Source: Somniosus microcephalus
Lineage: Eukaryota
NCBI GenBank assembly: GCA_052327205.1
Contig: JBMRGM010000043.1
Span: 31,124,001-31,188,000, forward strand
Length of the DNA stretch: 64,000 nt
Direction of reading: 5' to 3'
Shown here: positions 651 to 63,329 of the stretch, in pieces
Layout of the letters: every line of letters starts with the position of its first letter
Position numbering within the stretch: position 1 is the first letter of the stretch
Translations under genes and position numbers: made by a program
The notes under the pieces: model-generated
The model's input: only the letters and a program-made list of their open reading frames with translations
What the model was told of the DNA's origin: nothing
Databases searched by the model: none

Positions 651-953
651 AATTATCATCCCTTGTTTAAATTTAGTCGTTGGTTTATTCATTGCTCGTT
701 TCATTCCAACCATTTTCTTTAATTTTTTTGCTATAAAATAAATTCAGAGAGGAATCATAAGTGTATTTTTGTGTGACCTCAGCCAGTTAATTGTCAGTAG
801 TTTTGAACACACTGAAAATCGGGCGATATTGAATTGGCCATCCATTATCCATCTCTCCCGACTTCCCTTCCACTGAAATAACCACTGATTCTACCTCGCC
901 AGCTGTGCACCACCGCCTGAGACCAATTTCAGCTTCCTGTTCATTAATTCCAG

Positions 954-1082
954 GCTAACAAGAATGGTCCCAACGACTATTGTGTCACATACGCCATAGT
1001 TAACCGTGCAAACACTGAAGCTAGTTTGGAAGGAGGCCCAATGGAAGAAGGCTGTGTCTACGAAAACTTTCCACGGAAATAA
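954..1082 (+). CDS. Terminal cytoplasmic exon of an upstream FCRL-like paralog: ANKNGPNDYCVTYAIVNRANTEASLEGGPMEEGCVYENFPRK* (ITIM plus distal Tyr motif)
   Basis: Pyrimidine-rich acceptor ttcctgttcattaattccag ending at 953, phase 0, stop TAA 1080-1082. VTYAIV fits the ITIM consensus (I/V/L/S)xYxx(L/V). AATAAA near 1663 and 1759. This frame is not in the ORF track. Confidence 0.75.
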   Translation, partial: ANKNGPNDYCVTYAIVNRANTEASLEGGPMEEGCVYENFPRK

Positions 1083-6039: not shown

Positions 6040-6070
6040 ATGATTCACATCTGTCGCCTTCTGACCTTGT
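6040..6070 (+). CDS. Gene A leader exon S1 (MIHICRLLTL)
   Basis: ATG 6040, 31 coding nt, phase-1 donor gtaagt; conserved in four copies. Confidence 0.7.
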
Positions 6071-8801: not shown

Positions 8802-8831
8802 TGCAAATTACTCATCAGGCGACCACACAAG
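8802..8831 (+). CDS. Gene A leader mini-exon S2 (LQITHQATTQ)
   Basis: ttctctcttgcag | 30 nt | gtatga, phase 1-1; copies at 34877 and 44211. Confidence 0.75.
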
Positions 8832-11130: not shown

Positions 11131-11379
11131 CCCATGTCCCAGAAGTAGTCCTTAGCAATCCGAGCGATGGAATCGTGAAAGAAGGGGAGATATTTTACCT
11201 GCAGTGTCGATACAGAGGCATGAATAAATGGGCTTATTGGTATAAAGATGAGACTTATATTCATTTTAAATATATGTTCTTTGAAAGATATGCAGATAGT
11301 CGCAGTGGAGCGTCTTACCAGTGTTCAGTGCCTTGGTCCTCCTCTGAGAAGAGTAAACCTCTGGATTTAGTCACCATTG
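11131..11379 (+). CDS. Gene A Ig domain exon 1
   Basis: ttctacag | 249 nt | gtaggt, phase 1-1; KEGEIFYLQC...WYKD...SGASYQC. Confidence 0.85.
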
Positions 11380-13195: not shown

Positions 13196-13462
13196 CTTCT
13201 GATATGAATTTAACTCTGGAAGTGAATCCAACATCTGCACTGTCAGGTGACAGTATTATCCTGAAATGTTTGATGCCTTCCTGGAAATGGAGAGAAGGTT
13301 TTCCCTTCCTGTGGTATCGAGATAAACAGTTAATAGCAGAAACTGACGAATCTCAGTACACCATAGAAAACGCAAAAGAGTCAGATACGGCACCATATCG
13401 GTGTGAACTCAAAATACGTTACAGGAAGTGGATCTCCCCGAATGTAACCATCACCATAAAAA
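13196..13462 (+). CDS. Gene A Ig domain exon 2
   Basis: ttttttgcag | 267 nt | gttggt; SGDSIILKC...FLWYRD...DTAPYRC. Confidence 0.85.
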
Positions 13463-14250: not shown

Positions 14251-14527
14251 AACTCTTCTCCAAACCTAAACTGAGGACTGAGCCTGCAGTTAAAATATTT
14301 GAGGTAGACCAGTTAAAATTCATTTTTTTATTGAAACAATGCTGTTCAATATTAGGCTTCAATACACATTTCACAAAAATGGCAAAGCTCTGCAGTTGAA
14401 TTCATACATCAACTCTAAGCACATGGGGGCAGCTTCTTTGAAGGGCTCGGTGACTTAGCCTTGTTGAGCAAATGCTTTCTACCACCGTGATAACAACAGA
14501 GTGATGAGGTTTCCATTACGGTAGAAG
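14251..14527 (+). pseudogene. Dead Ig pseudo-exon in gene A (paralog of 49909 and 55974 exons)
   Basis: Acceptor reads ttttcacCG instead of cacAG; first Cys codon lost, indels and stops. Confidence 0.85.
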
Positions 14528-15860: not shown

Positions 15861-16139
15861 AGCTCTTCTCCAAACCTACATTGAGGGCTGATTCTGAAGC
15901 TCAAATATTTGAGGGCCAACAGTTAAATCTCGCATGTTCGGCTGAAATATTTCGCTCCAGTTCGTCTTTGAGATATGTATTTTTCAAAGATGAACAAGCT
16001 CTCAATTCAGCGGCAGACCACAACTATTACATCAAGGAGACAGCACTGCTGGACGATTCGGGGATTTACCAGTGTGAAGCAAGTACTTTGAACAGTGAGG
16101 TGAAGAAACTGAGTAATCAGGTTTCTGTTTCAGTCAGAC
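15861..16139 (+). CDS. Gene A Ig exon, FcR/FCRL D3-type
   Basis: ttttatag | 279 nt | gtgagt; ELFSKPTL..FEGQQLNLAC..LRYVFFKD..DSGIYQC. Confidence 0.88.
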
Positions 16140-17018: not shown

Positions 17019-17306
17019 GAATCCCAGTGTCCAAACCGGAACTGGCAATCAGCCCTGGTAAAGAGTTACTGGAAGGCGACACAGCGTCGTTAACCTGCTC
17101 AGTGTTCAACGGTTCTACCCCGATTACCTACATATTGTACAAAGGCCCAAATAAAGAACTCTTCCGAGAGGAGTCCAACCTAACCGAAATTACTTACCAA
17201 ATCGGTAAAGTCAACCAAAGCACCCAAGGGGATTATATTTGTGGTGTTTCAAACGAAGCGACCAGACGTCCTCTACACAGCGATTTTGTTACGGTTGCAG
17301 TGCTAG
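17019..17306 (+). CDS. Gene A membrane-proximal Ig exon, FCRL D5-like
   Basis: tttacag | 288 nt | gtgagt; IPVSKPEL..LTCSV..GSTPITYILYK..GDYICGVSN. Confidence 0.88.
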
Positions 17307-17694
17307 GTGAGTTATTATAAATACCTCTGAGGCAGAACGAAACAAGTGACTCAGTGAGAACAGTCCGGGAATCACTGCTTTTGCCAATAGCTTGGACGTT
17401 GTAACATCTTCTTTGACATTCTTCTGTGTGAAGTGAGGCACTGCGCCATTTACATTAAACAGGTGAATGCCTAAAAAGAACAAGAATGTCATCTGATTGC
17501 ATCAAGTATTGGTCTACAAACTGCAACTGTTAGTTGTAGATTTAAAACGGCTGATCACTCTGTTTAATTGACAAATTGAGAGAAGTTATACGGAGAGGTT
17601 AATGACGACTCAAATCTTAATACCATCGGCAGTAATTTTTGGGCTATAAATTTTAGAACATCATCTCTTAACCGTAGCTGCTAATACTTTTGTA

Positions 17695-18282
17695 TTTGTA
17701 TATGGGATTGGGCGTCGCTGGCAACATTTGCTTTAATTGGCCATCCCTAATTGCCCTTGAGAAGGTAGTGGTGAGCCACCTTCTTGAACCGCTGCAGTCC
17801 ACGTGGTGATCATCCAAATTCAGTACCCTGTCCCTGCTTTCTACCCACATCCCTTGATCCTGTTAGCCTTAAGCAACATATCTAACTCCTTCTTGAAAAT
17901 AATTAATGAATTGGCCTCAACTTCCTTTTGTGGTAGAGAATTCCACAGGTTCTCCACTCTCTGGGTGAAGAAATTCCTCCTCATCTCTGTTCTAAATGGC
18001 TTACCCCTTATCCTTAGACTGTGACCCCTGGTTCTGGACTCCCCGACTATCGGGAACATCCTTCCTGCATCTAATCTGTCGAGTCCTTTTAGAATTTTAT
18101 ACGTTTTATTGAGATCCCCTCTCATTCTTCAAAACTCCAGTGAATATAAGCCCAATTGACCCAATCACTCCTCATACGGCATTCCTGTCATCCCAGGTAT
18201 CCGTCCAGTTAATCAGCGCTGTACTCCCTCCATGGCGAGAACATCCTTCCTCAGATAAGGAGAACATCCTTCCTCAGATAAG
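17695..18282 (-). mobile_element. LINE 3' tail fused to a CR1 3' fragment
   Basis: 17695-17805 matches the insertion at 59080; ORF 17841-18125(-) is the CR1 ORF2 C-terminus; 22-bp tandem duplication at 18238-18282. Confidence 0.85.
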
Positions 18283-18472
18283 TTACTTGAGGGCCAACAG
18301 TTAAAACTCGCCTGTTTGGTTGAAATATTTCGCTCCAGTTCAGCGGCAGACCACAACTATTACATTAAGGAAACATCACGGCCTGACGATTCGGGGACTT
18401 ACCTTGGTAAAGCAACTACTTTGCACAGCGAGGTGAAGAAACTGAACAATCAGGTTTCAGTTTCAGTCAGAC
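18283..18472 (+). pseudogene. Truncated, internally deleted D3-type Ig pseudo-exon
   Basis: 5' end and acceptor missing, the LRYVFFKD segment deleted, second Cys lost (YLG); donor gtgagt retained. Confidence 0.85.
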
Positions 18473-18665
18473 GTGAGTACAATTTACTGCAATTATCTAT
18501 CATCTTTCATCCACTAAATTACCAACACATGCACACAATGGGATTCTTCATTCTGGCACAGGGCTTATCTATATGTTTAAGATGCACTGTATAAATAAAT
18601 GAATATATCCGTACATACTTGAAACCGTATTATGTTATTCATGGGATATGTTTATTTTATTCCAG

Positions 18666-18767
18666 TGCAGATTCACACAACCGCGATCAGAGCCTCAGTT
18701 TTTACACTTTTTCTTGTTGCTGCCCTGATTGCACTGGTACTCGTCAATCGTCCCAACAAGAAACAAG
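18666..18767 (+). CDS. Gene A transmembrane exon VQIHTTAIRASVFTLFLVAALIALVLVNRPNKKQ
   Basis: ttttattccag | 102 nt | gtgagt; same length as and alignable to 60551-60652. Confidence 0.85.
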
Positions 18768-19291
18768 GTGAGTCATGTTTTACAGGCAGGTGATTGGCTC
18801 TATAGTCACGTGAAGGGCTTCAGTGTATTCTATATTCAGTTGCGACATTCAAAATGCAACCATATTATTTGGGCAAAAGAGGGATAGTCTGGGCTGGAAA
18901 AAGAAAAATGTTATTTGAAATGACGATCTCAGAACAGACAGGAGCTTAAGACTGGGGCGAATTTGCCCAGTTAAGTGTTTTTATTTCCCTTTGTGCTGTT
19001 CAGAATTGATATGCATGTGGCCGAGGGGTAGAACAATAAGTGGCAGCATCATTCGTGGTTAGTGTGAGGAGACGATGCATCCTAAAGGATTTGTAACGCG
19101 GTATATGGTAATATCTTACATGTTTCTGTATATCTTTTCTGTATTGATTCTGTATTAATAAGTCATTTAATGCACGTTTGTAAAAGTTTAGATTTAATGT
19201 GAATGAATACGTTTGCAGTTAAACAAATCCACCTGTACAGCAATATTTATTGTACAACTTGCTGAAGTAGGTCTCTTCCTGTTTTATCCAG

Positions 19292-19322
19292 AAAATTCTT
19301 CAAGAATTTCACAATCGTTTGG
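19292..19322 (+). CDS. Gene A cytoplasmic exon 1 (ENSSRISQSFG)
   Basis: ttttatccag | 31 nt | gtaagt, phase 1-2; homolog at 61179-61209. Confidence 0.78.
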
Positions 19323-20239
19323 GTAAGTCCACGCAATTTTTAGCTGAATAAGCCATAGCTATATCCCTGAATATACTCAGTCTCTGTATAGCTGAACTAA
19401 ACGCGGTAAATGCTTGTGCGGTAGATTTTATCAATTGCATTGAACTTTAATCTGGCATTACGGATCAGCCTCCTGTTATAGAAAACACCATATTTTAATT
19501 TAATTTGAGTTGAATGGGATTGAAAAACATGTGGTTTCTACAACGCGTGTCTGTTCTGCTACACCACTTTTTATTCCGGGCACCGAGTTGGAAAATCTGC
19601 CCCATTGACGATAAGCCTTTACTGTAGCTCGCACTCAAACGATTACACTCCCTGCAGTCTATAAGGAGTGATCATTTTCTAAGTTATGTCAGTTGTACCT
19701 GAACTTCCTAACTTAAACAGAGTGAAATTCGCCCTGCGTGGCACAGTAAAAGGGGTGATTACAAATCGTTTTACAGTCCGCAGATTAGATTCCAGTGACT
19801 TGTAAACAAATATTGGGCGGAGTGTAAAAACTGTTGGAGTTTCGTTTAACCCTGCTCTCCACCACCGCCCAAGAAGAAATTATACCCCAAACTCTTCAAT
19901 CACTCAGTGAGCTGGACTATTCTTTAATCCTCCAATTTAATCCTCATGTAAATCACAGGGACCTGAAGCATTCTAGGATTTGGTGTGCAGGGCGATTGCG
20001 CATGTAGTTAATTTTAGTAACATTCACACAGTGACTATCTCAGGCAGTGGTCCATTTAACTGAACAAGCTTTTCTGGATACAGTTCTACTATTGATCAGC
20101 TTGAACAGTGTTTGTTGGCTTGGAATATCTAGTCCCCTTGTGAATCCAGTCGCTGTTTATTTTCCGACTCCCCTATGCTGGACATCATTCCACATGTGTT
20201 TTAACCTCTGACTGAATGTTGCTTGAACTTTCGATACGT

Positions 20240-21660
20240 TTGTGTGGCCCTCAATTTGAAACTGTGGCACTCTTCTAGAGCTTCGGTATGGAAGCACATC
20301 TCTATACGCATTACCCAATCCTGTCATAACCATAAATAATAATTTTTAAAACTTCTCCATCTTCTTTCAAGATTGATTTTTTTTTAAATTACTCCAACTC
20401 CTTTCAAGGCTTTATCTCCCTGGTTTTGTAACTAATCTAGTGACCCAGCCTTTATATTCAACAAGCGTCTAGTATGTTTCTCTTATTAAAAAGATATCAA
20501 CATTGTATTCACTGCGCCAGATGTGGGACATCTGCTGGGCAGAGCACAGAAAGGAAGATCTGGTCGGAATGATCTCTTGCTGAAAGCAGAAACGCTTGAT
20601 TTCTGTTCCATTAAGTACCGTGAAAGGAAAATCCTGCATGTTCTGTAAAAGATGTGTTAACCTCTCCACCATATTCTCATCTTTGCATTCCTTCAACATG
20701 ATTCTTAACAAACAAATGGCAGGAAAAATCATTGATACCCCATGAACTTGCATCAATACCAATTATAAATTTACGGTTATCTTTCTTGATTTCTGTGGCC
20801 CTCAATTTGTAACTGTGGCACTCTTCTTGAGCTTCGGTATTAAAACGCATCTCTAAGCACATTCCACCATCCTGTCATAATCATAAATAATATTTCAAAA
20901 AACTTCTCATTCTTCTTTCAAGACTATTTTTTTCAAAATACTCCAACTCCTTTCATCACTCTGTCCCCTTGGTTTTGGAACTAATCTAATGATCCTGCCT
21001 TTACATTCATCAAGAGTCTAATATGTTTCTCTTATAAAAATGATATCAACACTGTACTCACTGCGCCAGATGTGGGACATCTGCTGGGCTGACAGCATAA
21101 CGTATGTTCAGTTGGAAGGTATCCCTTGCTGAACGCAGAACCGCTTGATATAAACACATATAAAACACATCTGTATGCACATTTCCCAAAAACCTCTTAA
21201 TCATAAATAATTATTGCTAAACTTCGCATTATTCTTTCAAGACTGAATTTTATCACAATACTCCAACTCCTTTCAAGGCTCTATCGCCCTGGTTTTGAAT
21301 GTAAGCTCGTGACACGCCCTTTATATTCAACAAAAGAATCAATGTTTATTTTATTAAAATGATACCAGCACTGTACTCCCTGCGCCAGATGTGGGACATC
21401 TGCTGGGCAGAACACAGAAAGGAAGCTTGGTTGGGAAGGAGCTCTTGCCGAAAGCAGAACCACTTGCTCCCTGTTCCATTAAGCTGCGTGCAAGGAAAAT
21501 GCTGCCTGTTCTGTAAATGATGTGTGAACCTCTCCACCAGGTTCCTCTTTGATTTCCTCCAACGTGATTTTTAGCACAAAAATCATAGAAAAAATGTTTT
21601 TAACAAAGGACATGCTCCAATACCAACTATAATTTTAAGGTTATCTCCCGTGATTTATAA
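20240..21660. repeat. Three diverged tandem copies of a ~550-bp unit of unknown origin
   Basis: Anchor cgccagatgtgggacatctgctgggc near 20515, 21064 and 21383 (spacings about 549 and 319). Confidence 0.85.
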
Positions 21661-22657
21661 GTTACACGGTGGTGATATATCTCAACATTCTCTACAGTTC
21701 CTAATTCACTTTCAACACTGCACCCACTTTTTTTTTTAAACTGATACCCAAATATCAATGATACATTCTTCCTTTTATTTGGTATTGAATCCTCCCTTCC
21801 ATTTAGGACACAATGGGTCAAATTTGCTTTTCCAATGGAGTTGAAAGCAGGTGGTAAGGGATGGCCGGCCAGTTTTACACACAGCCTACTTTCCATTTCC
21901 AAATTCGGCTGGAGTGTAAAACGAGCGGCTGAGCCTTTACCACCCATATTCTGCTGGACGGTAAAAGTGAATATTAACTTCAACTTTCCAACTTGCCGCT
22001 CGGGCATAAACTGCCGTTTCTGGTCAGCCGTCCAATTGAGATTGCGCCCGATTATCCTGTGAAACAATTTCGAAGCTATGAAAATCCGGCGAGTGCTGTT
22101 TCTTACTGCCCAGCAGTAATGTGGATCATATACCCCCCGCCAGGAGACACTCTTACTACGTTACAATCTTCAACCATAATCAGTATAACTTAATTTGGGG
22201 CCGCAGCACACAGCGAGCACTAACGAATCTATTGCACATTTTGGACTCGACCGATTTTATTTTCCATAAATTTCAATGGATCAAAAATGATCTAGAGGAT
22301 TTCTAAATGGACAGCCGATTCGCTACATTTCGCTTTGCGGTGTCTTCAAGGACCAATTTCTACTGAAGTGAGTCATGATAAGGGAAATCTGGAAAATATC
22401 TGAGGTAATTCAGGATCTGCTGAGAGAACGACGTTAGACCCCTGGGGAGGAAAGTGCCACGGATCGGCAACCTGTCTACCTTGAGCTTCTTCAACTGGTC
22501 CAATGGATGTGGACTTGCAAGTTTAAGGTTATGTCTCTTGTAAACTGCTTGCTTGTTTTTGATATTTATTCTACTATTTCATCTTATTTGAAAGTAACAT
22601 TTCCGTTGTCCACGATTATTGTTAAACTTTAATCTCTGTGAACATTTCCGCACTTAG

Positions 22658-22743
22658 GGAGGCAACTAGAAACAGACCTCCAAGTGAAGAGAATTCTGCA
22701 GACAATTCCGAGTCTGCAGGTGTGCGATCAGCTCAAAGCACCG
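22658..22743 (+). CDS. Gene A cytoplasmic exon 2 (EATRNRPPSEENSADNSESAGVRSAQST, no Tyr)
   Basis: cacttag | 86 nt | gtaagt, phase 2-1; aligns to 63238-63329. Confidence 0.78.
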
Positions 22744-23009
22744 GTAAGTTCAACCTGATCAGCATGTGATGAACCGTAGATTGTTTGGGGTAACATTTCC
22801 ATCGGAAGTTCTCTCCAATATCGTTATCACTTCGGCAGAAGTTAGGCTACAACTCCAGAGAGATCACCCTTTCTGCAAGTTTTCCACGGAAATTCCACCA
22901 ACGTTACGACGAGACATTGGGAAAAACCACATAGAGTTTCTATTTCCTTCTCTGCGTACACTCAGCACAATCTAGCGTTAGGTTTTCTTCTTCACTGTCT
23001 GGATATTGA

Positions 23010-23710: not shown

Positions 23711-24093
23711 GTCATTAATCTCTGATATTACAGTCATACTCTTATGGACACCTGTTGCTTGCGAAACTGTGTAAATCCTGAGTGAAATATGATGGCTCTC
23801 TACAGAATAAAATTGTGCCTTATGTAAAGAATCAAAGTTAAGTTATACTAATATTGCAGTTAATTTACTTGGATACTCTTAAGAGCCGAGATGGATTTCC
23901 TTCTCCACCACTCGGTCGAACGAAATAAAAGTGATCTTACTGTCCTTAGATATCTTTTTCTTAATCTTTATATTCGATCTGATAATTAATTCCTTGTGAA
24001 AACATATCAAACGAGTAACAGAAATGGACTCAAAATGTGCAATACAATAGAGAATTTTGCATTGATAGAATGTTAACTTCCTTTCATGGAAAG

Positions 24094-28120: not shown

Positions 28121-29429
28121 GAAGCTATTCTTTCTGAAGCATTCCGAATATTTGTTACCCTAATAATTCTCTGCAGGACAATTTATTTCAGTGCTATGTT
28201 TCCTTGAATATAACATATTGACGTTGGAGCACACCGATTGGCCGATTTTAACTTGGCTGTATCATTTCAGCTCCTGATCAGTTAGGTTCGGGCCTCGATA
28301 TTTTCACGTAATAGCTGATTGGCTTTATGTAAACTTGGCACTCTATTTTGGCAGCTGAATAAATAATTTTAACTGGAATGATTCTCTGCTGGCTGCCCTC
28401 TTTCAGTGACGGGATATTCCAACATTTCTCATGGCATTCGGAGAAAACTGATTGGCTGATTGTAAGCACAGTGGGCTCTTCCAATATAAAAATAATCGCA
28501 ATTACTATTGCAACACATATGATCAGGAGATGGTAACGTACCCGTCTGAAGTCTGTTCCCCATTACTGAATGAACAACACAGTACTGAGCGCATTCTGCT
28601 TTTCAATGGCAGGTGGAATCAATATCTTAGGAAGGGAATATTCTGACTGATCTGTAACATGAATCGTCTTTCTTATAAGATAACTAATTAGATGAATGAT
28701 TAACTATTAGAAAGCCTGAACATGAAATAGCTACGTTGGTTATTGTTGAACAGACTGGGGAAGGGGACGAATCTCTGGTTGAAAGGGTGAAGAAGTGCGA
28801 ATTTTTGAAATAAATCTGAGTGTGGAGATGCCGTGTTGGATAGTTTGAACATGAGCGCCGGGTCTGATACACTTGTTTATTAACCTGACCTGTATCACCC
28901 GTGACTTGACTCACTGAAAGTGATGGAGGGGTGGAGGGGGGGACTCTTGCATGTTTAACGCTGCTGTGTATGAAAATGTTGCTGCAGTTAGTCCAAGCAC
29001 AGTATGTGACTTAAAGGAAGTCGACAGCGGTACAGGTGATTTACTGATACATTGGGTACAAACACAATTTCAGATGGATGACAGCATAAGTGCAGGCAGC
29101 ATCATTGATTAGTGAGGACAATGATATTGAAGCATATTTAAAAGCTACTCACAGTTTGATGTGGTGTAAATGATTCACAGCATAATAGTTTCGCCACAGA
29201 CTGAGGCAGGCAGGATTGGTGCTCGACACATGGCATTTTAGTGCCTTGAAGAAAGACTGGGGAGGATAGTATTTTGTGACTGAATGTCGAGGAGAACTGA
29301 AGATTCGCTGACAGACTGCATTTTACAGACTGGAACAATGGTATTATCCTTTGCAGTTAAAATCCAGACAAAGCGACATGGACAAGATTTAATTGGTTTA
29401 TAACATATTAGTAAAAATATAACTTTTTA

Positions 29430-31640: not shown

Positions 31641-31671
31641 ATGAAGAACATCTGTCGCCTTCTGATCCTCT
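31641..31671 (+). pseudogene. Orphan leader exon S1, module 2 (MKNICRLLIL)
   Basis: 31 nt with donor gtaagg; upstream non-coding donor mutated to ataagt (31129); no Ig exon before the next leader. Confidence 0.65.
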
Positions 31672-34876: not shown

Positions 34877-34906
34877 TGCAAGTTACTCATCAGTCGAACA
34901 CACAAG
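34877..34906 (+). pseudogene. Orphan leader mini-exon S2, module 2 (LQVTHQSNTQ)
   Basis: tctctttcag | 30 nt | gtatga; 3 substitutions versus the other two copies. Confidence 0.65.
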
Positions 34907-37215: not shown

Positions 37216-37246
37216 ATGAAGCACATCTGTCGCCTTCGGATCTTCT
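37216..37246 (+). pseudogene. Orphan leader exon S1, module 3 (MKHICRLRIF)
   Basis: 31 nt with gtaagt donor; Leu to Arg in the hydrophobic core; upstream donor ataagt (37034); module ends near 39370 without S2. Confidence 0.65.
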
Positions 37247-40251: not shown

Positions 40252-40282
40252 ATGAAGCACATCTGTCGCCTTCTGATTTTCT
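40252..40282 (+). CDS. Gene B leader exon S1 (MKHICRLLIF)
   Basis: ATG 40252, 31 nt, gtaagt donor; upstream non-coding donor intact at 39746. Confidence 0.72.
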
Positions 40283-44210: not shown

Positions 44211-44240
44211 TGCAAATTACTCATCAGGCGACCACACAAG
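44211..44240 (+). CDS. Gene B leader mini-exon S2 (LQITHQATTQ)
   Basis: tctctttcag | 30 nt | gtatga; identical to 8802-8831. Confidence 0.75.
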
Positions 44241-48627: not shown

Positions 48628-48859
48628 ATGGCGATGTGGCCTTCCAGGTCGAACCACCTTCGGTTTTGGAAGGAGATGTTCTGAATCTGAATTGTCGGTA
48701 CAGAAAATATTATTTGTGGAAATAGAAGGATCCACTCAATGAAGTTGTATTATTGGAACGCTCTGCATAGCATTAGGGTGAATAGTTCAAAAGACAGTGG
48801 ATCATACCATTGTACTATTGACGAGAAAATTTCTCGAAGTGTTCATGTTCACGTTCACG
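48628..48859 (+). pseudogene. Frameshifted FcR D2-like Ig exon (first duplicate)
   Basis: 232 nt versus 258 nt in the copy at 52859; in-frame TAG after CRYRKYYLWK; both splice sites intact. Confidence 0.82.
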
Positions 48860-49908
48860 GTACGTATGCAAAATTTCAATTGGTGATATCCCTCTTTAAT
48901 ATTTATAAATATTACTGGTCCGAGAATTTCTGAATCTGTACAAAATTATATATAGTTCTGTGATCTCGGAATAATTTGTTCACGTTAGGTCATATGATGT
49001 TTATCTAACAACGTGCTACTTTAGTCGATATTTAACACGGGCGGGTCTCCTCCCATGCCAGCTCCAGCAGATTTCTTTCTCCTCCCGACCCACCTTTGAG
49101 GAGAATTTGGCGGCTTCCTCCATTACCACCATGTGACATCTAGAGGCTGACGGGCAGTTTTCTGCCACGAAACCGAAATTTGATGCTGCCTCTGTCCTTA
49201 ATAAGCACGATGAGTATATTTGACATAAAGTACCAGCAGGTCCTCGTGAGACCCTGGAACGTCAGTGGTCGGTCCGCTGACGAACATTGTGGAAGGATAG
49301 AATAAGCAGTGTGCTCCTCTCCACTCTGTTTTGCTATTTTCACTTACGTGTTTGGCGCAAACTTCGCCACAGACCCCTAATAAACTATGGGAGCAGATTC
49401 CCTTGGATGCCCTTGTCATCGCAGCGGGTGTGTTATATCATCACTGATCCATCGCCCTGGCCGTGAGAATCTGGAGTCTTTGTAAATTCAGATGGTGACA
49501 ATGGAGCAGGGGGCTTTGTTGGGGACAGAGCGACTTTGCTGCGACCAATTGTGGAGTTCACCGTGGTCATAGTAGATGGTGAGACACGGCAGATAATGGC
49601 TAAAAGAGAAAAGAGCTATGGGAGGATTCCTGCTGAAATATAAGTCTTGTCCTGGTTGGAATTTCTGTTTCAGCACTTTATATTAAGCAGATTAAGATCT
49701 CCGCAAACAAAGCAGCGAGAGGAATTCCACAACAATATAGTAATGCTTCCTGCTCTAGTGTTCCACAATACAGCTGCTAGTTACCGTTAATTGTAGACGC
49801 CCCTCGTGGCGATTTGCGGTATTGCCTTGCTCCTATTAAAAAGCTCTGCTGTCTGTTTAACTCAGTGATAGGAAATGTTACCTGTCAATCCAGATTCTGC
49901 TTTCACAG

Positions 49909-50184
49909 AACTCTTCTCCAAACCTAAACTGAGGACTGACCCTGCAGTTGAAATATTTGAGGGACACCAGTTAGTATTCATCTGTATTATTGAAACAATG
50001 CCGTACAGTAATGGGCTTCAATACTCATTTTACAAAAATGGCGAAGCTCTGATATTGACTTCATACAACACATTTAAGCTCACGGAGACAGCTTCTTTGA
50101 AGGACTCGGGGACTTACCTGTGTGAAGCAAATATTTCCTACCGCGTTGTGAAAAAGAGTGATGAGGTTTCCATTGCGGTTAAAG
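49909..50184 (+). CDS. Gene B D3-type Ig exon (a, first duplicate)
   Basis: tttcacag | 276 nt | gtaagg; ELFSKPKL..FICI..LQYSFYKNG..DSGTYLC. Confidence 0.83.
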
Positions 50185-50729
50185 GTAAGGACAGCCAGCT
50201 GTAATTATTGTTGAATGAAAGAATTCTTCAGGGGATTATACTTAAATAAACATACGAGAGGGATCCAGTCTGGTAAAGGATTTACCCACAAGTTTATCAC
50301 GTAATAATCAATTTTGAATGCAACCTGCTAAATGACAGCGCCACCTGGTTCTTACACTATCCATACATTTGCTGAAAACCGAAGTTTTAAAAGCTGCTAC
50401 GTTTGAGGACCAGCGCCCACTCCCAGTGGGTAATAGTAGCTTCTTGAAATAGTGTGGAATTGGGCGATTTTGAATTTATCTCCCATTATATGTCCCGACC
50501 GTTTTTGCATCCATTGATTTCAATGGACAGGAATATCGCGCGTAGTGTAGAATTGGTGCAAGATTCGATGCCGTGCATTTTAACCCATAGCCCCAAGGTA
50601 AAGTTACCTTCCCTGTTTCTAACTGGCATATTCAGCAGCGAGCAGAACCTGATCAGGAACAGCAGGGTGATTAATCAGCCAATGCCTTACCACTTACTAG
50701 CCCCGGAAATCTTTTATAGTTGAAAACTC

Positions 50730-50863
50730 GGGGGTAAAATTTAACATTGAGAGCGCTAAAACTGAACAGCAGAAAATTGAATTGAAATTGGCCTGTGTTT
50801 ATAAAGGGTGATCAATCTGCTACCACCGGTTTTTTACCCCAGACAAACTTGAATTTTCACCCC
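50730..50863. mobile_element. Short ~135-bp palindromic MITE (also at about 15083-15216 and 56806-56939)
   Basis: TIRs gggggtaaaatt / aattttcacccc, flanked by CTC on both sides. Confidence 0.65.
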
Positions 50864-51517
50864 CTCCAATTTCAGTAGCGGTGGATGCAAAATGCCCGAG
50901 GTCACTAACGTCTGTGCCTCTGGTGCCCGGGGATTCCTTCCCAATCTTTTAGATCCGGCCAATCATAACTCGAGCTTCACATTTTCAATGGAGCAGGCAA
51001 TCTGAAAACAAGGTGGGAGTTATCAATCCTGTGTCGGCAGTGGATTTCAGAAAAATTGTATTGATAGTAGCTGAGCGTTTAACATGAAGGTCCTAAAATT
51101 TGCAGGTGCAGCCACAACGACCAAGGATATTTCAGTATTTAAGACCCGGGAGTAAAGCATCGCCTGGGCTGAGAGCTGAGTTCAAATGATGGGGTTGTGG
51201 GGTTGGGGTGTTGGGGGATAATCTCACAGGACCCGCAGGATGTTTCTTCCATTCATTTCAATGGAAGCGTTAACTTGTTCCCAAACATCGGCTAGCCACG
51301 ACAGGATGTTCAGATCTCAAGTGATAACTGTGTCAATGTCCCGAACTGCCTATTCCCGTAGCAGAGCGCAATCAAGGATTATTGAAAGCCTCTTTCTCTG
51401 AGCTGCTGTCGGCTTTTCATTCTTCTGCTCATTAACGTGAGTTGTCCAAACACATAAATTGTTAAGTCTGTGATGGATGTGGAACCCGGAAAATCCATGC
51501 ATTATTCTATTTTATAG

Positions 51518-51796
51518 AGGTCTTCTCCATACCTACACTGAGGGCTGAGTCTGGAGCTCAATTATTTGTGGACCAACAGTTAAATCTCGCCTGTTTGGTT
51601 AAAATATTTCGATCCAATACTTCCTTGAGACTCGTATTTTACAAAGATGGACAATCTCTCACTTCAGCGGCAGACAACAACTATTACATCAAGAAGGCAT
51701 CTCGGCCGGACGATTCGGGGAATTACTGGAGCGAAGCAACTACTTTGAACAGTGAGGTGAAGAAACTGAGTAATCAGGTTTCCGTTTCAGTCAGAT
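51518..51796 (+). CDS. Gene B D3-type Ig exon (b, first duplicate), second Cys lost
   Basis: ttttatag | 279 nt | gtgagt; open frame, but DSGNYWS replaces DSGIY(Q/R)C. Confidence 0.65.
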
Positions 51797-52858
51797 GTGA
51801 GTACAATTTAAGACAATGTTATAACACTTTTAAAGAGAACATGAAAATCATAGAATACGGGTAGCGTACACCAGGGAAGTAAAAGTGTATTCACCAGGAT
51901 AGACTTGAGGTATTGGGACTAACACTACCGGGTTAGCCATAGCTAAAGGTTATTTCATTAGTGGTTTTTAAATGCAAATTCCGAAATTGGGCGATTAGGG
52001 AAAGATATTTTCTCTGATTGCGAAGACAGGAAGGAGGGATCAGTAATGTATAATTATCATTAAAGCGGGAGGGTAGCGCTTAGAAGGACGTTCCGAGTGC
52101 TGGAACATAGAATGATTTGCCAGGTGGAGCGGTGGAGTTAGATAGAATTTTACAGTGAACATGAGGCTAGTGGCAGTGCCCTCGGGCCTACTGATGTGCG
52201 CCTGTCACTGCCCTACAGAAACCAGCGTAAGCCCGTCCCAACATAAGCAGATCTCTTGCTAATGGATGAGAGAGTGTAGCTGAGCCAGGCATATAGCTGA
52301 GGCCAGGAAGGTTTGGCGCACTCTTTCCTTATCGTCACAACGCAACTCGGGCACTGTGTGCCCTCTGGGAGGCTCAGAAATCAAAAGGAGCTGGATGCAC
52401 ACCTTCCATAATCTGGTCGAAGGGGGGGATGGAATGCACCTCACAGAATCCGGTGGAGTTTCCTTCTGTTGAGATCAATGGAGTACATTTACTGTGAGTT
52501 CGGTAAGCAATAAGTGATCACTAGTGCTAGATTTTCTAATCCCTTATGTGCTCGGGCGTTGCTTAACCGTCGTTCCCAAAATAGTTTATTTTCAGTGTAT
52601 CAAACTAAGAAGAGCTGGGCCAAATGGTGGGGAGCTGCTGCACGAGGATAGATTATCAATAAACCCCATTTACAACCATCAGTAAATTCAACACCACCCG
52701 ACTGCTGTTTCCTTTCTGTTCTTCTTTTTCCCAGACTTGCCTGGAGTTGGGATTGGGGTTTTCTCGTGTCCAATGTATACGGGCTGTTGTGGAGCAGTTC
52801 TCAGTTTGAGTTAAGCATTTGTTAAGCTAAAACCGCCACATTTTGTTCCCAACATTAG

Positions 52859-53116
52859 ATCGCAAAGTGGCCTTCAATGTCGACCCACCTTCGGTTTTGG
52901 AAGGAGGTGTTCTGAATCTGAATTGTTGGTTCAGAATGCATTATTGGAGGCATAAAGATGTTGGCTTTTACAAGGGCAATATAAGGATTCACTCAATGAA
53001 GTTGACCGATCGGAAAGCTCTGCATAGCATTAGAGTGAATAGTTCAAAAGACAGCAGATCATACCATTGCACTGTTGGCAATAAGGAATCACGAAGTGTT
53101 CATGTTCACGTTCAAG
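52859..53116 (+). CDS. Gene B FcR D2-like Ig exon (second duplicate, intact)
   Basis: aacattag | 258 nt | gtacgt; VLEGGVLNLNC..VGFYKG..DSRSYHC. Confidence 0.82.
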
Positions 53117-58409: not shown

Positions 58410-58697
58410 GAACCCCAGTGTCAAAACCGGAACTGGCAATCAGCCCTGGTAAAGAGTTAATAGAAGGAGACACAGCGTCGTTAACCTGCTCAGTGTTCAA
58501 CGGTTCTACCCCGATTACTTACATTTTCTACAAAGACCCGGATAAAGAACTCTTCCGTGAGGAGTCCAACCTAACCGAAATTAATTACCAAATCAGTGAA
58601 ATCAACCAAAGCACCCAAGGGGATTATAGTTGCGGTGTTTCAAACAAAGCGACAGGACGTCCTCTGCAAAGCGATGTTGTTACAGTTTCAGTGATAG
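58410..58697 (+). CDS. Gene B membrane-proximal Ig exon, FCRL D5-like
   Basis: tttgcag | 288 nt | gtgagt; 80/96 aa identical to 17019-17306 by hand count. Confidence 0.87.
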
Positions 58698-59079
58698 GTG
58701 AGTTATTATAAGTACCCCTGAGGCAGAACGAAACAAGTGGCTCAAAGTCAGATGAGCCCGGTAATCACTGCTTGTGCCATCAGCTTGGATGGTGTAACAT
58801 TTTCTTTGACATTCCTCTATGTGAAGTGAGGCACTGCACCATTTACATTAAACAGGTGAATTACTAAAAAGAACTAGAATGTCATCTGATCGCATCAAGT
58901 ATTGGTCTATAAACTGCAACAGTTATTTGTAGGTTTAAAAAGGCCGATCAGTATGTTTAATTGACAAATTGAGGGAAGTAATACGGATAATTTAAGGACT
59001 CAAAACTTAATACCATAGGTAGTAGTTTCTGGGCTATATGTTTTAGACCACCATTTCTCGACAGTTGTTGCTAATATAT

Positions 59080-59680
59080 TTGTATTCGTTTATGTGATGT
59101 GGGTATCTCTGGCAATGCCAGAATTTATTGCCTATCCCTAATTGCCCTTGAGAAGGTAGTGCTGAGTGGCCTTCTTGAACCGTTGCTGTCCGTGTGTTGA
59201 CGGTACTCCCGTAGTGCTGTGAGGGAGGGAGTTCCAGGAATTTGATGCAGTGACGATGAAGGATCGGCGATAAACTTTTAAATCAGGATGGTAGATGATT
59301 TGTAAAGGATCTTACAGGTGCGGTGTCCCCATGCCTCTTCTGCTCTTGTCCTTCTAAATGGAAGAAGTATCGGGTTTGGGAGGTGCTGCCGAAGAAGTCT
59401 TGGCATGTTGCTGCAGTGCATCTTGTAGATGGTGCACACTGCAGCCATGATACGCTGGTGGTGGAGGGAGTGAATTTGTTACTTGTTGGATGATGTGCCA
59501 ATCAAGGAGGCTGCTTTGTACTGGCTGGTGTCGAGCTTCTTGAGTGTTGTTGGAGCTGCACTTATCCAGGCAAGTGGAGAGTATTCCGTCACACGACTTA
59601 CTTGTGCCTTGTAGATGGTTGAAAGGCTTTGGGGAGTCAGGAGGTGAGACACACGCCGCGGATTACCCAGCCTCTGCCCT
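59080..59680 (-). mobile_element. CR1/L2-group LINE 3' end
   Basis: Reverse strand encodes YKAQV..EYSPLAWISAAPTTLKKLDT; same tail as 70-650. Confidence 0.8.
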
Positions 59681-60550
59681 ATATCGATATCATGGTACCA
59701 GGTAGAAGTTTCATAAAGCTTGATCTGATTTCATGAAATACTTTTCTTTCGACAACGCAAAAAGTATATTGATTTCGTATGATTTATACGTCATAAAGGA
59801 CACATCACACCTCAGGTGAACATTTATAAGTCTAGTTTCTGATTAAGAAATTGATCGTAACTAGATGGAAATAGACCTGAAATAAACTAGCAGAATTTCC
59901 CACAAGCGCTTTAGAATTTGAAATTGATAAGGTCAAAAGCAGAGCCATGGTTATAAAGCGAGAGAGAGGGAGAGATTGGAAGGGGTGAGCAAAAAACTGG
60001 CTGCAAATATGGGTCTGGTAGGAAGTTTGAAGCAGGCTGTAGTAGAGATGTAAATGCAATTAATGAGATGGTTTAAGAGAGCAGAATCAAATTACTTTCA
60101 CTAATGGTGTGACAAAGGAAGCGTATATGCCCAATCGGCCACAAATCAATTGACTGAACTGTGTAAAGACAGAGATAAAATTGGAGGAGATTTGTCAGAG
60201 ATATAGTGAACAGGAGGACCAGGAGTTTAAGTTTATTACATTGGAGGACAGGGAGCTAGATGAAAACAATGGCGAGTAAGAATTAACGTGGGACAGGGAC
60301 GTTTGGATTAGTTGGAATTAGTGGACAGCGGGGTCAGGAGCCCAGAAAGGAAGTCATTGTAATAATCGAGGCTAGAGCTTACAAATCCACGGATCAGTGT
60401 TTCAGCGTGCAGGGGTTGAGGTGGGTAGAAAGGGAATCAATTTAGTGCAGATTAAAAAATAAAAATTAATTCTGCGTATGGTGCGAGGTTGAATTTGTTA
60501 TGATTGGAACGGTTTTATATGATTCATGGAATAATTTTGTTTGATTCCAG

Positions 60551-60652
60551 CACAAAGTCACACAACCGCGATCACAGCAGCCGTTCTTCCACTTTTTCTG
60601 ATCGCTACCCTGATTGCACTGGTTTCCTTCAAACTTCGGAAAAAGAAACAAG
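60551..60652 (+). CDS. Gene B transmembrane exon AQSHTTAITAAVLPLFLIATLIALVSFKLRKKKQ
   Basis: ttgattccag | 102 nt | gtgagc; uncharged hydrophobic span followed by a basic stop-transfer cluster. Confidence 0.87.
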
Positions 60653-63237: not shown

Positions 63238-63329
63238 GGTGACAACTGAAAATAGATCTGTACCTCCGAGTGAAGAAACATCTGCGAGCAATTTCGAGTA
63301 TGCAGTTGGGGGATCAGCCCCAAATACTG
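63238..63329 (+). CDS. Gene B cytoplasmic exon 2 (VTTENRSVPPSEETSASNFEYAVGGSAPNT); gene continues past the window
   Basis: gtgcaaag | 92 nt | gtaagc, phase 2-1; aligns to 22658-22743. Confidence 0.75.

Follow-up and report, generated by a model that had tools for sequence, protein, structure and literature searches.

The TM segments of activating LRC receptors are described as carrying an Arg within an NxxR motif, together with an N-terminal DYT and an acidic C-end (PMC6557307). In Xenopus, FcR-like receptors with NxxR TMs associate with FcR-gamma and have the TM and a short tail encoded on one exon, and uncharged TMs (i.e., the inhibitory class) have separate tail exons (PMC2413239); about 50 NxxR exons are described in each Xenopus genome (PMC4536121). 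The combination of an FCRL-type ectodomain and an Arg-bearing TM is therefore not new, as it is known from the Xenopus XFL proteins. Regarding sharks, a 2014 study did not find FcR-gamma, FcRL or LRC genes (PMC4016189), and the lack of FcRL in cartilaginous fish is repeated in PMC13337447; a single-cell study of the bamboo shark reports expression of cd247 as well as genes named fcrl3 and fcrl5 (PMC11372145). A literature search that covered few of the subscription journals listed no paper on a charged-TM FcR-like receptor in sharks, and a search for work on the positional sensitivity of the CD89 Arg likewise returned none.

We analysed a 64,000-nt stretch of shark DNA (henceforth the window) for which an earlier note had described an LRC-style Arg at the start of the TM on an FCRL-type ectodomain, present in one of two genes (A) and replaced by Thr in the other (B), and had proposed adaptor coupling as a possible consequence. 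Besides genes A and B, the window contains several orphan leader exons and, at 951-1082, the final exon of a paralogue that lies upstream; no other gene was recognised in it. The shark Fc-receptor-like genes found here form a tandem, multi-gene cluster (6040-63329), which is at odds with the statements in PMC4016189 and PMC13337447 that cartilaginous fish lack FcRL. FcRL-type names for shark genes are themselves already in use, both in RefSeq automatic annotation and in PMC11372145. As we argue below, the Arg of gene A more probably reflects drift in a copy that does not signal than a step towards a new activating receptor.

Gene A lies on the forward strand, and in its predicted exon structure the signal peptide is split between a 31-nt exon with an ATG start (6040-6070; found by an ATG-to-GT scan and matching the N-terminus of homologue P0004) and a 30-nt mini-exon (8802-8831), an identical copy of which is present in gene B at 44211-44240. 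These are followed by four open Ig exons (11131-11379, with two Cys; 13196-13462; 15861-16139; 17019-17306), with a dead Ig exon between the second and the third (14251-14527), whose acceptor AG has become CG and which carries two 1-nt gaps relative to gene B as well as in-frame stops. The TM exon (18666-18767; 102 nt) has an AG acceptor and a GT donor and is in phase 1 at both ends. Upstream of it lie a high-copy repeat fragment on the reverse strand (17808-18260; detected by self-BLAST, with very high depth and loose ends at 17807 and 18260), which we take to be LINE-like, and just beyond this fragment a truncated forward-strand copy of an Ig-exon-3-type exon (18278-18472), which has lost its 5' end and its second Cys, contains an internal deletion and gave no Pfam match; an in-frame reading of this remnant is possible via a cryptic AG. 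The tail is encoded by a 31-nt exon (19292-19322) and a second cytoplasmic exon (22658-22769), in which a Tyr has become Ser (TAT to TCT). We infer that the transcript would read through the donor of this last exon (22743) to a stop at 22767-22769, and two AATAAA hexamers at 23806 and 23924 (23806-23929, forward strand) are candidate ends for such a transcript. The nine exons other than the dead one are all open and have canonical AG/GT sites (for the first exon, the donor only), and predicted splicing combined with read-through of the last donor would give an open ORF of 462 residues with a 54-residue tail lacking Tyr. Including the dead exon would cut the ORF at 241 residues, but its acceptor is itself mutated, so its skipping is expected.

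Several further features of gene A were recorded along the way. Positions 11191, 15939 and 17137 within its exons differ in all covering contigs of a related organism (Ile/Thr, Ser/Leu and Leu/Phe, respectively), and the intron between the two tail exons contains three tandem copies of a unit of about 320-550 bp that are 77-83% identical (20239-21656). Contig depth in the related organism was 51, 34 and 40 in the bins holding the TM and tail exons (18619-19420, 22629-23000), compared with 14-38, mostly 14-28, in intron bins; this two- to threefold depth is a hint of more gene-A-like TM modules in that organism, depth being no copy number.

The FCRL-type ectodomain described in the earlier note holds by best match. 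Specifically, the membrane-proximal intact Ig exons 4 and 3 have FCRL5 as their first PDB match (E = 1e-23 and E = 5.9e-28), Ig exon 2 has Fc-gamma-RI (E = 1.3e-06) and Ig exon 1 gave no FcR match in the PDB, i.e., three of the four intact Ig exons match FCRL5 or Fc-gamma-RI first, a count made by best match. Ig exon 4 is moreover 63-65% identical to proteins of Heptranchias, Pristiophorus and Heterodontus that RefSeq calls ‘Fc receptor-like protein 2’. Shark proteins to which automatic RefSeq annotation has given the names ‘Fc receptor-like protein 2/3/5/6’ or ‘PECAM-like’ (e.g., XP_067833440.1 of Heptranchias and XP_067878182.1 of Heterodontus) resemble gene A in domain order, TM and the first two tail exons; they differ in having an uncharged residue in the column of the Arg (column 8 of the TM alignment) and a distal Tyr motif in all 15 aligned tails. 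The two homologues compared by tblastn (Heptranchias and Heterodontus) also have an extra membrane-proximal Ig domain, which is missing in genes A and B. The corresponding stretches of the two genes (17306-18666 and 58697-60551) contain no membrane-proximal Ig exon, and an annotated Heptranchias isoform (P0001) skips to the TM exon out of frame. As to the remaining hallmarks of the family, the multi-exon tail with Tyr motifs is present in the shark proteins and in the upstream paralogue and lost in gene A, and the signal peptide is split but in exons of 31 and 30 nt, which departs from the 30/21-bp rule of FCRL/FcR genes; in Xenopus, too, this rule holds in just a fraction of XFL genes (PMC2413239).

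Gene B has its own irregularities. Its second cytoplasmic exon (63238-63329, forward strand), in which the Tyr is kept, has a weaker acceptor (AAG), and any later exons would fall outside the window. Among its duplicated Ig exons (48628-53116) some have decayed, with a frameshifted exon starting at 48628 and another lacking the second Cys (51518-51796). Upstream of its first Ig exon lie three leader exons and two signal mini-exons (31641-31671, 34877-34906, 37216-37246, 40252-40282 and 44211-44240) with no Ig exon between them, i.e., tandemly duplicated 5' ends that are either alternative promoters or orphans.

The TM peptides reported for the two genes gave two matches in the 64,000-nt window, both on the forward strand. 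The TM exons of gene A and gene B (60551-60652, forward strand) are identical at 79 of 102 nt in an ungapped alignment and are flanked by homologous introns, and the reported difference was confirmed: gene A has AGA (Arg) at 18689-18691, with 18 apolar residues behind it, and gene B has ACA (Thr), the ancestral state, at 60574-60576. In gene A the first cytoplasmic K/R lies 20 residues after the Arg, and in gene B the first Lys lies 19 after the Thr. We confined the comparison to seven Arg-bearing TMs that came from our homologue searches; the distance was 19 in four of them and 27 in one, while two ended before any K/R. The Arg was thus correctly placed at the outer edge, and a spacing so near to 19 makes its column, judged by these TMs, the positional equivalent of the NxxR Arg to within 1-2 residues, although the apolar run behind it is longer (18 residues vs. 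16 in four of the seven), which puts it about half a helical turn further out. The weaker juxtamembrane basic cluster attributed to gene A was also borne out, if modestly (three K/R in the last seven exon residues vs. five in gene B). Prediction of the TM boundary, which had been suggested as a check, came out divided: the best 21-residue hydrophobic window includes the Arg, at position 3, and the best 19-residue window excludes it, each on all three scales used. The register of the Arg supports the earlier note without showing that the side chain is buried. Two other features of the segment have changed in gene A, namely a Pro conserved in 10 of 14 homologues and the Phe-Lys boundary.

To place the Arg in the wider family, we collected 17 distinct homologous TM segments from 34 of 42 homologous proteins (ungapped score of at least 38; the eight without a homologous TM were dropped). 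Column 8 holds Ala in seven of these, Thr in six, and Ser, Pro, Ile and Leu in one each; two of the segments may be one residue out of register, and all are counted as homologues, not as orthologues, of gene A. Given that none of the 17 has Arg or Lys there, the Arg is derived, and the Thr-to-Arg difference is, judging by these alignments, a derived point change. In nine of the 17 segments a K or E lies 1-3 residues ahead of column 8, meaning that the membrane edge is located there and tolerates charge. A homologue search with the gene A TM stretch yielded no scoring protein among 69 candidates (a weak test), and PDB searches with the gene A TM exon and with an NxxR TM gave no useful match. 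In the contigs of one related organism, depth was just 0.12 in the bin holding the Arg site; for those of another, the site did not appear among the differences listed, a further 232 rows lying beyond the listing. Separately, five annotated Chiloscyllium isoforms or partial models (P0160, P0162, P0168, P0173 and P0175) have short Tyr-free tails and a TM uncharged at column 8, so tail loss without the Arg is predicted elsewhere in the family.

The description of the TM as LRC-style did not withstand comparison with that class, in either sequence or gene structure. The Arg does lie near the TM N-terminus, but the residue at -3 is Thr and not Asn, the exon starts with QIHTT and not DYT, and it encodes no D or E, hence no acidic residue at the C-end. 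Furthermore, whereas the Xenopus TM1 type has the TM and a short tail on one terminal exon, the TM exon of gene A is internal, with a phase-1 donor and two subsequent tail exons homologous to those of gene B. On sequence, gene A is therefore not a member of the NxxR/LRC TM class. One could still suppose that the exon, like that of Xenopus XFL TM1, is of LRC/NxxR type on an FCRL ectodomain, whether by descent or by exon shuffling; the Arg and its spacing would speak for this. We consider it extremely improbable, as the exon aligns without gaps to the uncharged TM exon of gene B at the identity given above and lies between homologous introns, which refutes such an origin, as NxxR, DYT and an acidic C-end are all missing from it, and as it is internal whereas XFL TM1 exons include the tail (PMC2413239). 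Five large multi-Ig proteins of 868-1780 residues with NxxR or near-NxxR TMs also appeared in our searches (P0017, P0035, P0036, P0038 and P0097; P0035 is a frog protein named hemicentin-1-like), which suggests that other receptor families employ such TMs as well.

We then asked what became of the Tyr-motif exons. A profile of the 15 homologous tails found tail exon 2 of gene A (E = 2e-4) and, as a positive control, the terminal Tyr-motif exon of the upstream paralogue (951-1082, forward strand; 58 bits, E = 1e-17), an exon type missing in gene A, for which no counterpart was found in the window. For the middle Tyr-motif exon the best value in the window was E = 5.9, and with no positive control there its absence is less firm. 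A stretch at 28939-28977 (tblastn, 24 bits, E = 0.058) was considered as a decayed terminal exon and rejected: 303 of 2543 DNA windows scored as high, at least ten of the 6384 protein windows ranked above it, and it was missing from the results of the profile search. The distal Tyr motif, as noted, is universal among the 15 aligned homologous tails. The Tyr of tail exon 2, on the other hand, is missing in six of the 15 homologues that retain distal motifs, and drift removed it in 32% of simulations, so its loss in gene A is not special and carries little weight. Contigs under a second organism label cover 18785-20541 (6 differences) and 21608-22791 (7 differences), so that an error of assembly does not account for the arrangement as far as tail exon 2. 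The predicted Tyr-free tail, which had gone unnoticed in the earlier note, adds context that would favour its activating reading.

To judge how readily chance could produce the Arg, we ran neutral simulations from the gene B TM exon (branch 0.10-0.22, kappa 2 or 4). Arg arose at the site itself in 2-3% of open outcomes, and within the six-residue edge in 2-6% (Arg or Lys, 4-11%); over the 21-residue segment, Arg or Lys arose anywhere in 13-36% and any charge in 22-54%. The edge Arg thus weakly exceeds chance. It is also one of about 14 gene-A-specific changes in the TM and tail module. With Heptranchias as outgroup, the 33-residue TM exon has 8 changes of its own in gene A and 2 in gene B (p = 0.11), and the TM plus two tail exons have 14 and 7 (p = 0.19; 15 and 7 with Heterodontus, p = 0.13), so the relative-rate excess is not significant. 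In the tree of the TM/tail module, branch A measures 0.47 and branch B 0.17, with A and B not resolved as sisters, and in the Ig3-4 tree 0.085 and 0.16, with A and B as sisters (97/96). Drift as fast as that of the introns would alter 31% of residues, which places the gene A module near neutral at the residue level. The module nevertheless has no frameshift, no stop and six intact splice sites, for which we estimate a neutral chance of about 0.06 × 0.38 × 0.10, i.e., about 0.002 (a rough product, with rough gap counts); this argues that it was retained as a membrane anchor even as its sequence relaxed or shifted. Pairwise dN/dS between A and B (Ig exons, 0.49, 1.29, 0.63 and 0.49; TM exon, 0.69) is based on too few sites to decide. 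Intron divergence between the two genes (JC) is 0.15-0.18 around Ig3-4 and 0.39-0.46 around the TM and tail, a mosaic which fits the homogenisation described for paired receptors (PMC3210942) and, equally, a chimera formed by unequal crossing-over. In both RNA runs that we searched (24% and 31% read; tissue not given; no expressed control), there were no splice joints on gene A and depth on its TM and tail bins was zero. These runs carry the same species label as the best-matching DNA, and we did not take zero depth as silence; in one run, a few reads in a single orientation fell on the Ig exon bins of gene A.

Taking this evidence together, we lean, with somewhat better than even confidence, towards gene A being a truncated, non-signalling paralogue with an incidental interfacial Arg. 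It would belong to a tandem shark family of Fc-receptor-like inhibitory receptors and have lost its distal Tyr-motif exons, probably in a local rearrangement that also left the orphan leader exons and the broken Ig exon. If expressed, its product would have four Ig domains, a membrane anchor and a tail free of Tyr, and would bind ligand but neither signal nor couple to an adaptor; it may serve as a decoy or competitor of the inhibitory paralogues, or be on its way to decay. Once the signalling constraint was gone, the TM and tail may have drifted near the neutral rate while staying open, and the Thr-to-Arg change could be one of these drift changes, tolerated because it would sit at the outer head-group interface, where the 18 apolar residues behind it could span the bilayer without it. 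The ancestral Thr, the lack of Arg or Lys in all 17 homologous segments, the fast module, the two decayed Ig exons and the missing NxxR context point this way, as do the 19-residue window without the Arg and the lack of shark FcR-gamma in PMC4016189. However, a module with a neutral survival chance of about 0.002 has not been long dead, the Arg falls in a near-NxxR register where drift puts it in 2-6% of outcomes and inside the 21-residue window, the Arg together with loss of all Tyr motifs has the look of an activating paralogue, and the mosaic introns fit the homogenisation of paired receptors; the FcR-gamma negative, too, comes from a 2014 study that also missed FcRL-like genes.

Gene A may accordingly be viewed in another way, namely as an activating partner that arose de novo out of an inhibitory receptor, whose outer-edge Arg would pair with the TM Asp of FcR-gamma or of a CD3-zeta-like ITAM adaptor, and which, by analogy with activating KIRs, would have lost its Tyr motifs while keeping an ectodomain similar to that of gene B. 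We regard this as possible but doubtful. It is a real rival because the Arg register (20 vs. 19 residues to the first K/R) and the tail loss both fit it: the predicted 462-residue ORF ends in 54 residues without Tyr, and the distal motif exons were not found although that of the upstream paralogue was, at 58 bits. The mosaic intron divergence and a module constrained against frameshifts are in line with it, and there is precedent in activating KIRs derived from inhibitory ones (PMC6557307), in the TM Arg of KIR2DL4, which allows FcR-gamma association (PMC1193534), and in the expression of CD247 in bamboo shark (PMC11372145). Against it stand the 0 of 17 homologous TMs with Arg, the fruitless TM-stretch search among 69 candidates (weak), the lack of NxxR, DYT or an acidic C-end, the two decayed exons and the apolar run of 18 vs. 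16; FcR-gamma is reported absent from sharks (PMC4016189), and adaptor binding by a catfish LITR was independent of TM charge (PMC4810170), making charge a poor predictor in fish. A further view is that gene A is a recently silenced pseudogene, or that its tail exons are missing just from this assembly, the Arg being without function in either case. The dead exon, which would truncate the ORF at 241 residues if included, the repeat insertion and the exon remnant that immediately precede the TM exon, and the local rearrangement reflected in the orphan leader exons at 31641 and 37216 are compatible with this, but skipping of the dead exon is expected from its mutated acceptor, the other nine exons are open with canonical sites, a few single-orientation RNA reads fall on Ig exon bins and the contigs of the second organism cover both segments around the tail exons (6 and 7 differences); we consider it unlikely.

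If gene A is indeed a non-signalling paralogue, the locus illustrates the birth-and-death process usual for multigene families of the immune system, and cautions that little can be predicted from a lone TM Arg. Only tentatively can one propose that in a cartilaginous fish an inhibitory Fc-receptor-like gene became, independently, an activating partner coupled to an adaptor, by deletion of the Tyr-motif exons and a one-base change to Arg at LRC depth. Were this so, sharks would have paired FCRL-like receptors and a zeta-family adaptor serving them, in a group where two papers state that FcRL is absent and one of the two did not find FcR-gamma; paired FcR-like signalling would extend to cartilaginous fish, the single-base difference would serve as a natural test of whether adaptor coupling can rely on an outer-edge Arg that has no NxxR around it, and it would point to a shark ITAM adaptor used outside the T-cell receptor.

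Several known systems share parts of this arrangement, and gene A may function like a paired activating receptor. Xenopus XFL TM1 receptors have an FCRL-type ectodomain, an Arg in the TM and no Tyr motifs, and their association with FcR-gamma has been shown (PMC2413239). Unlike gene A, they have NxxR in a TM homologous to those of the LRC, on one exon with a very short tail, whereas the TM of gene A descends from the uncharged type and retains separate tail exons. LILRA2, Fc-alpha-RI, GPVI, NKp46 and OSCAR also have an Arg near the outer TM end, but gene A has none of the NxxR, DYT and acidic C-end of LRC activating receptors (PMC6557307), and its ectodomain matched FCRL5 and Fc receptors far better than LILRB1. 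Catfish LITR 2.6b is an FcR-related receptor of fish in which a TM charge goes with a short tail lacking Tyr; here the charge is Lys and not Arg, and adaptor binding persisted without it (PMC4810170). KIR2DL4 and the activating KIRs are like gene A in that the charge arose in an inhibitory-type TM, with the Arg of KIR2DL4 allowing FcR-gamma association (PMC1193534). The Arg of KIR2DL4 is not known to form part of an NxxR motif. KIR2DL4 differs in belonging to another family and clade and in keeping an ITIM-bearing tail.
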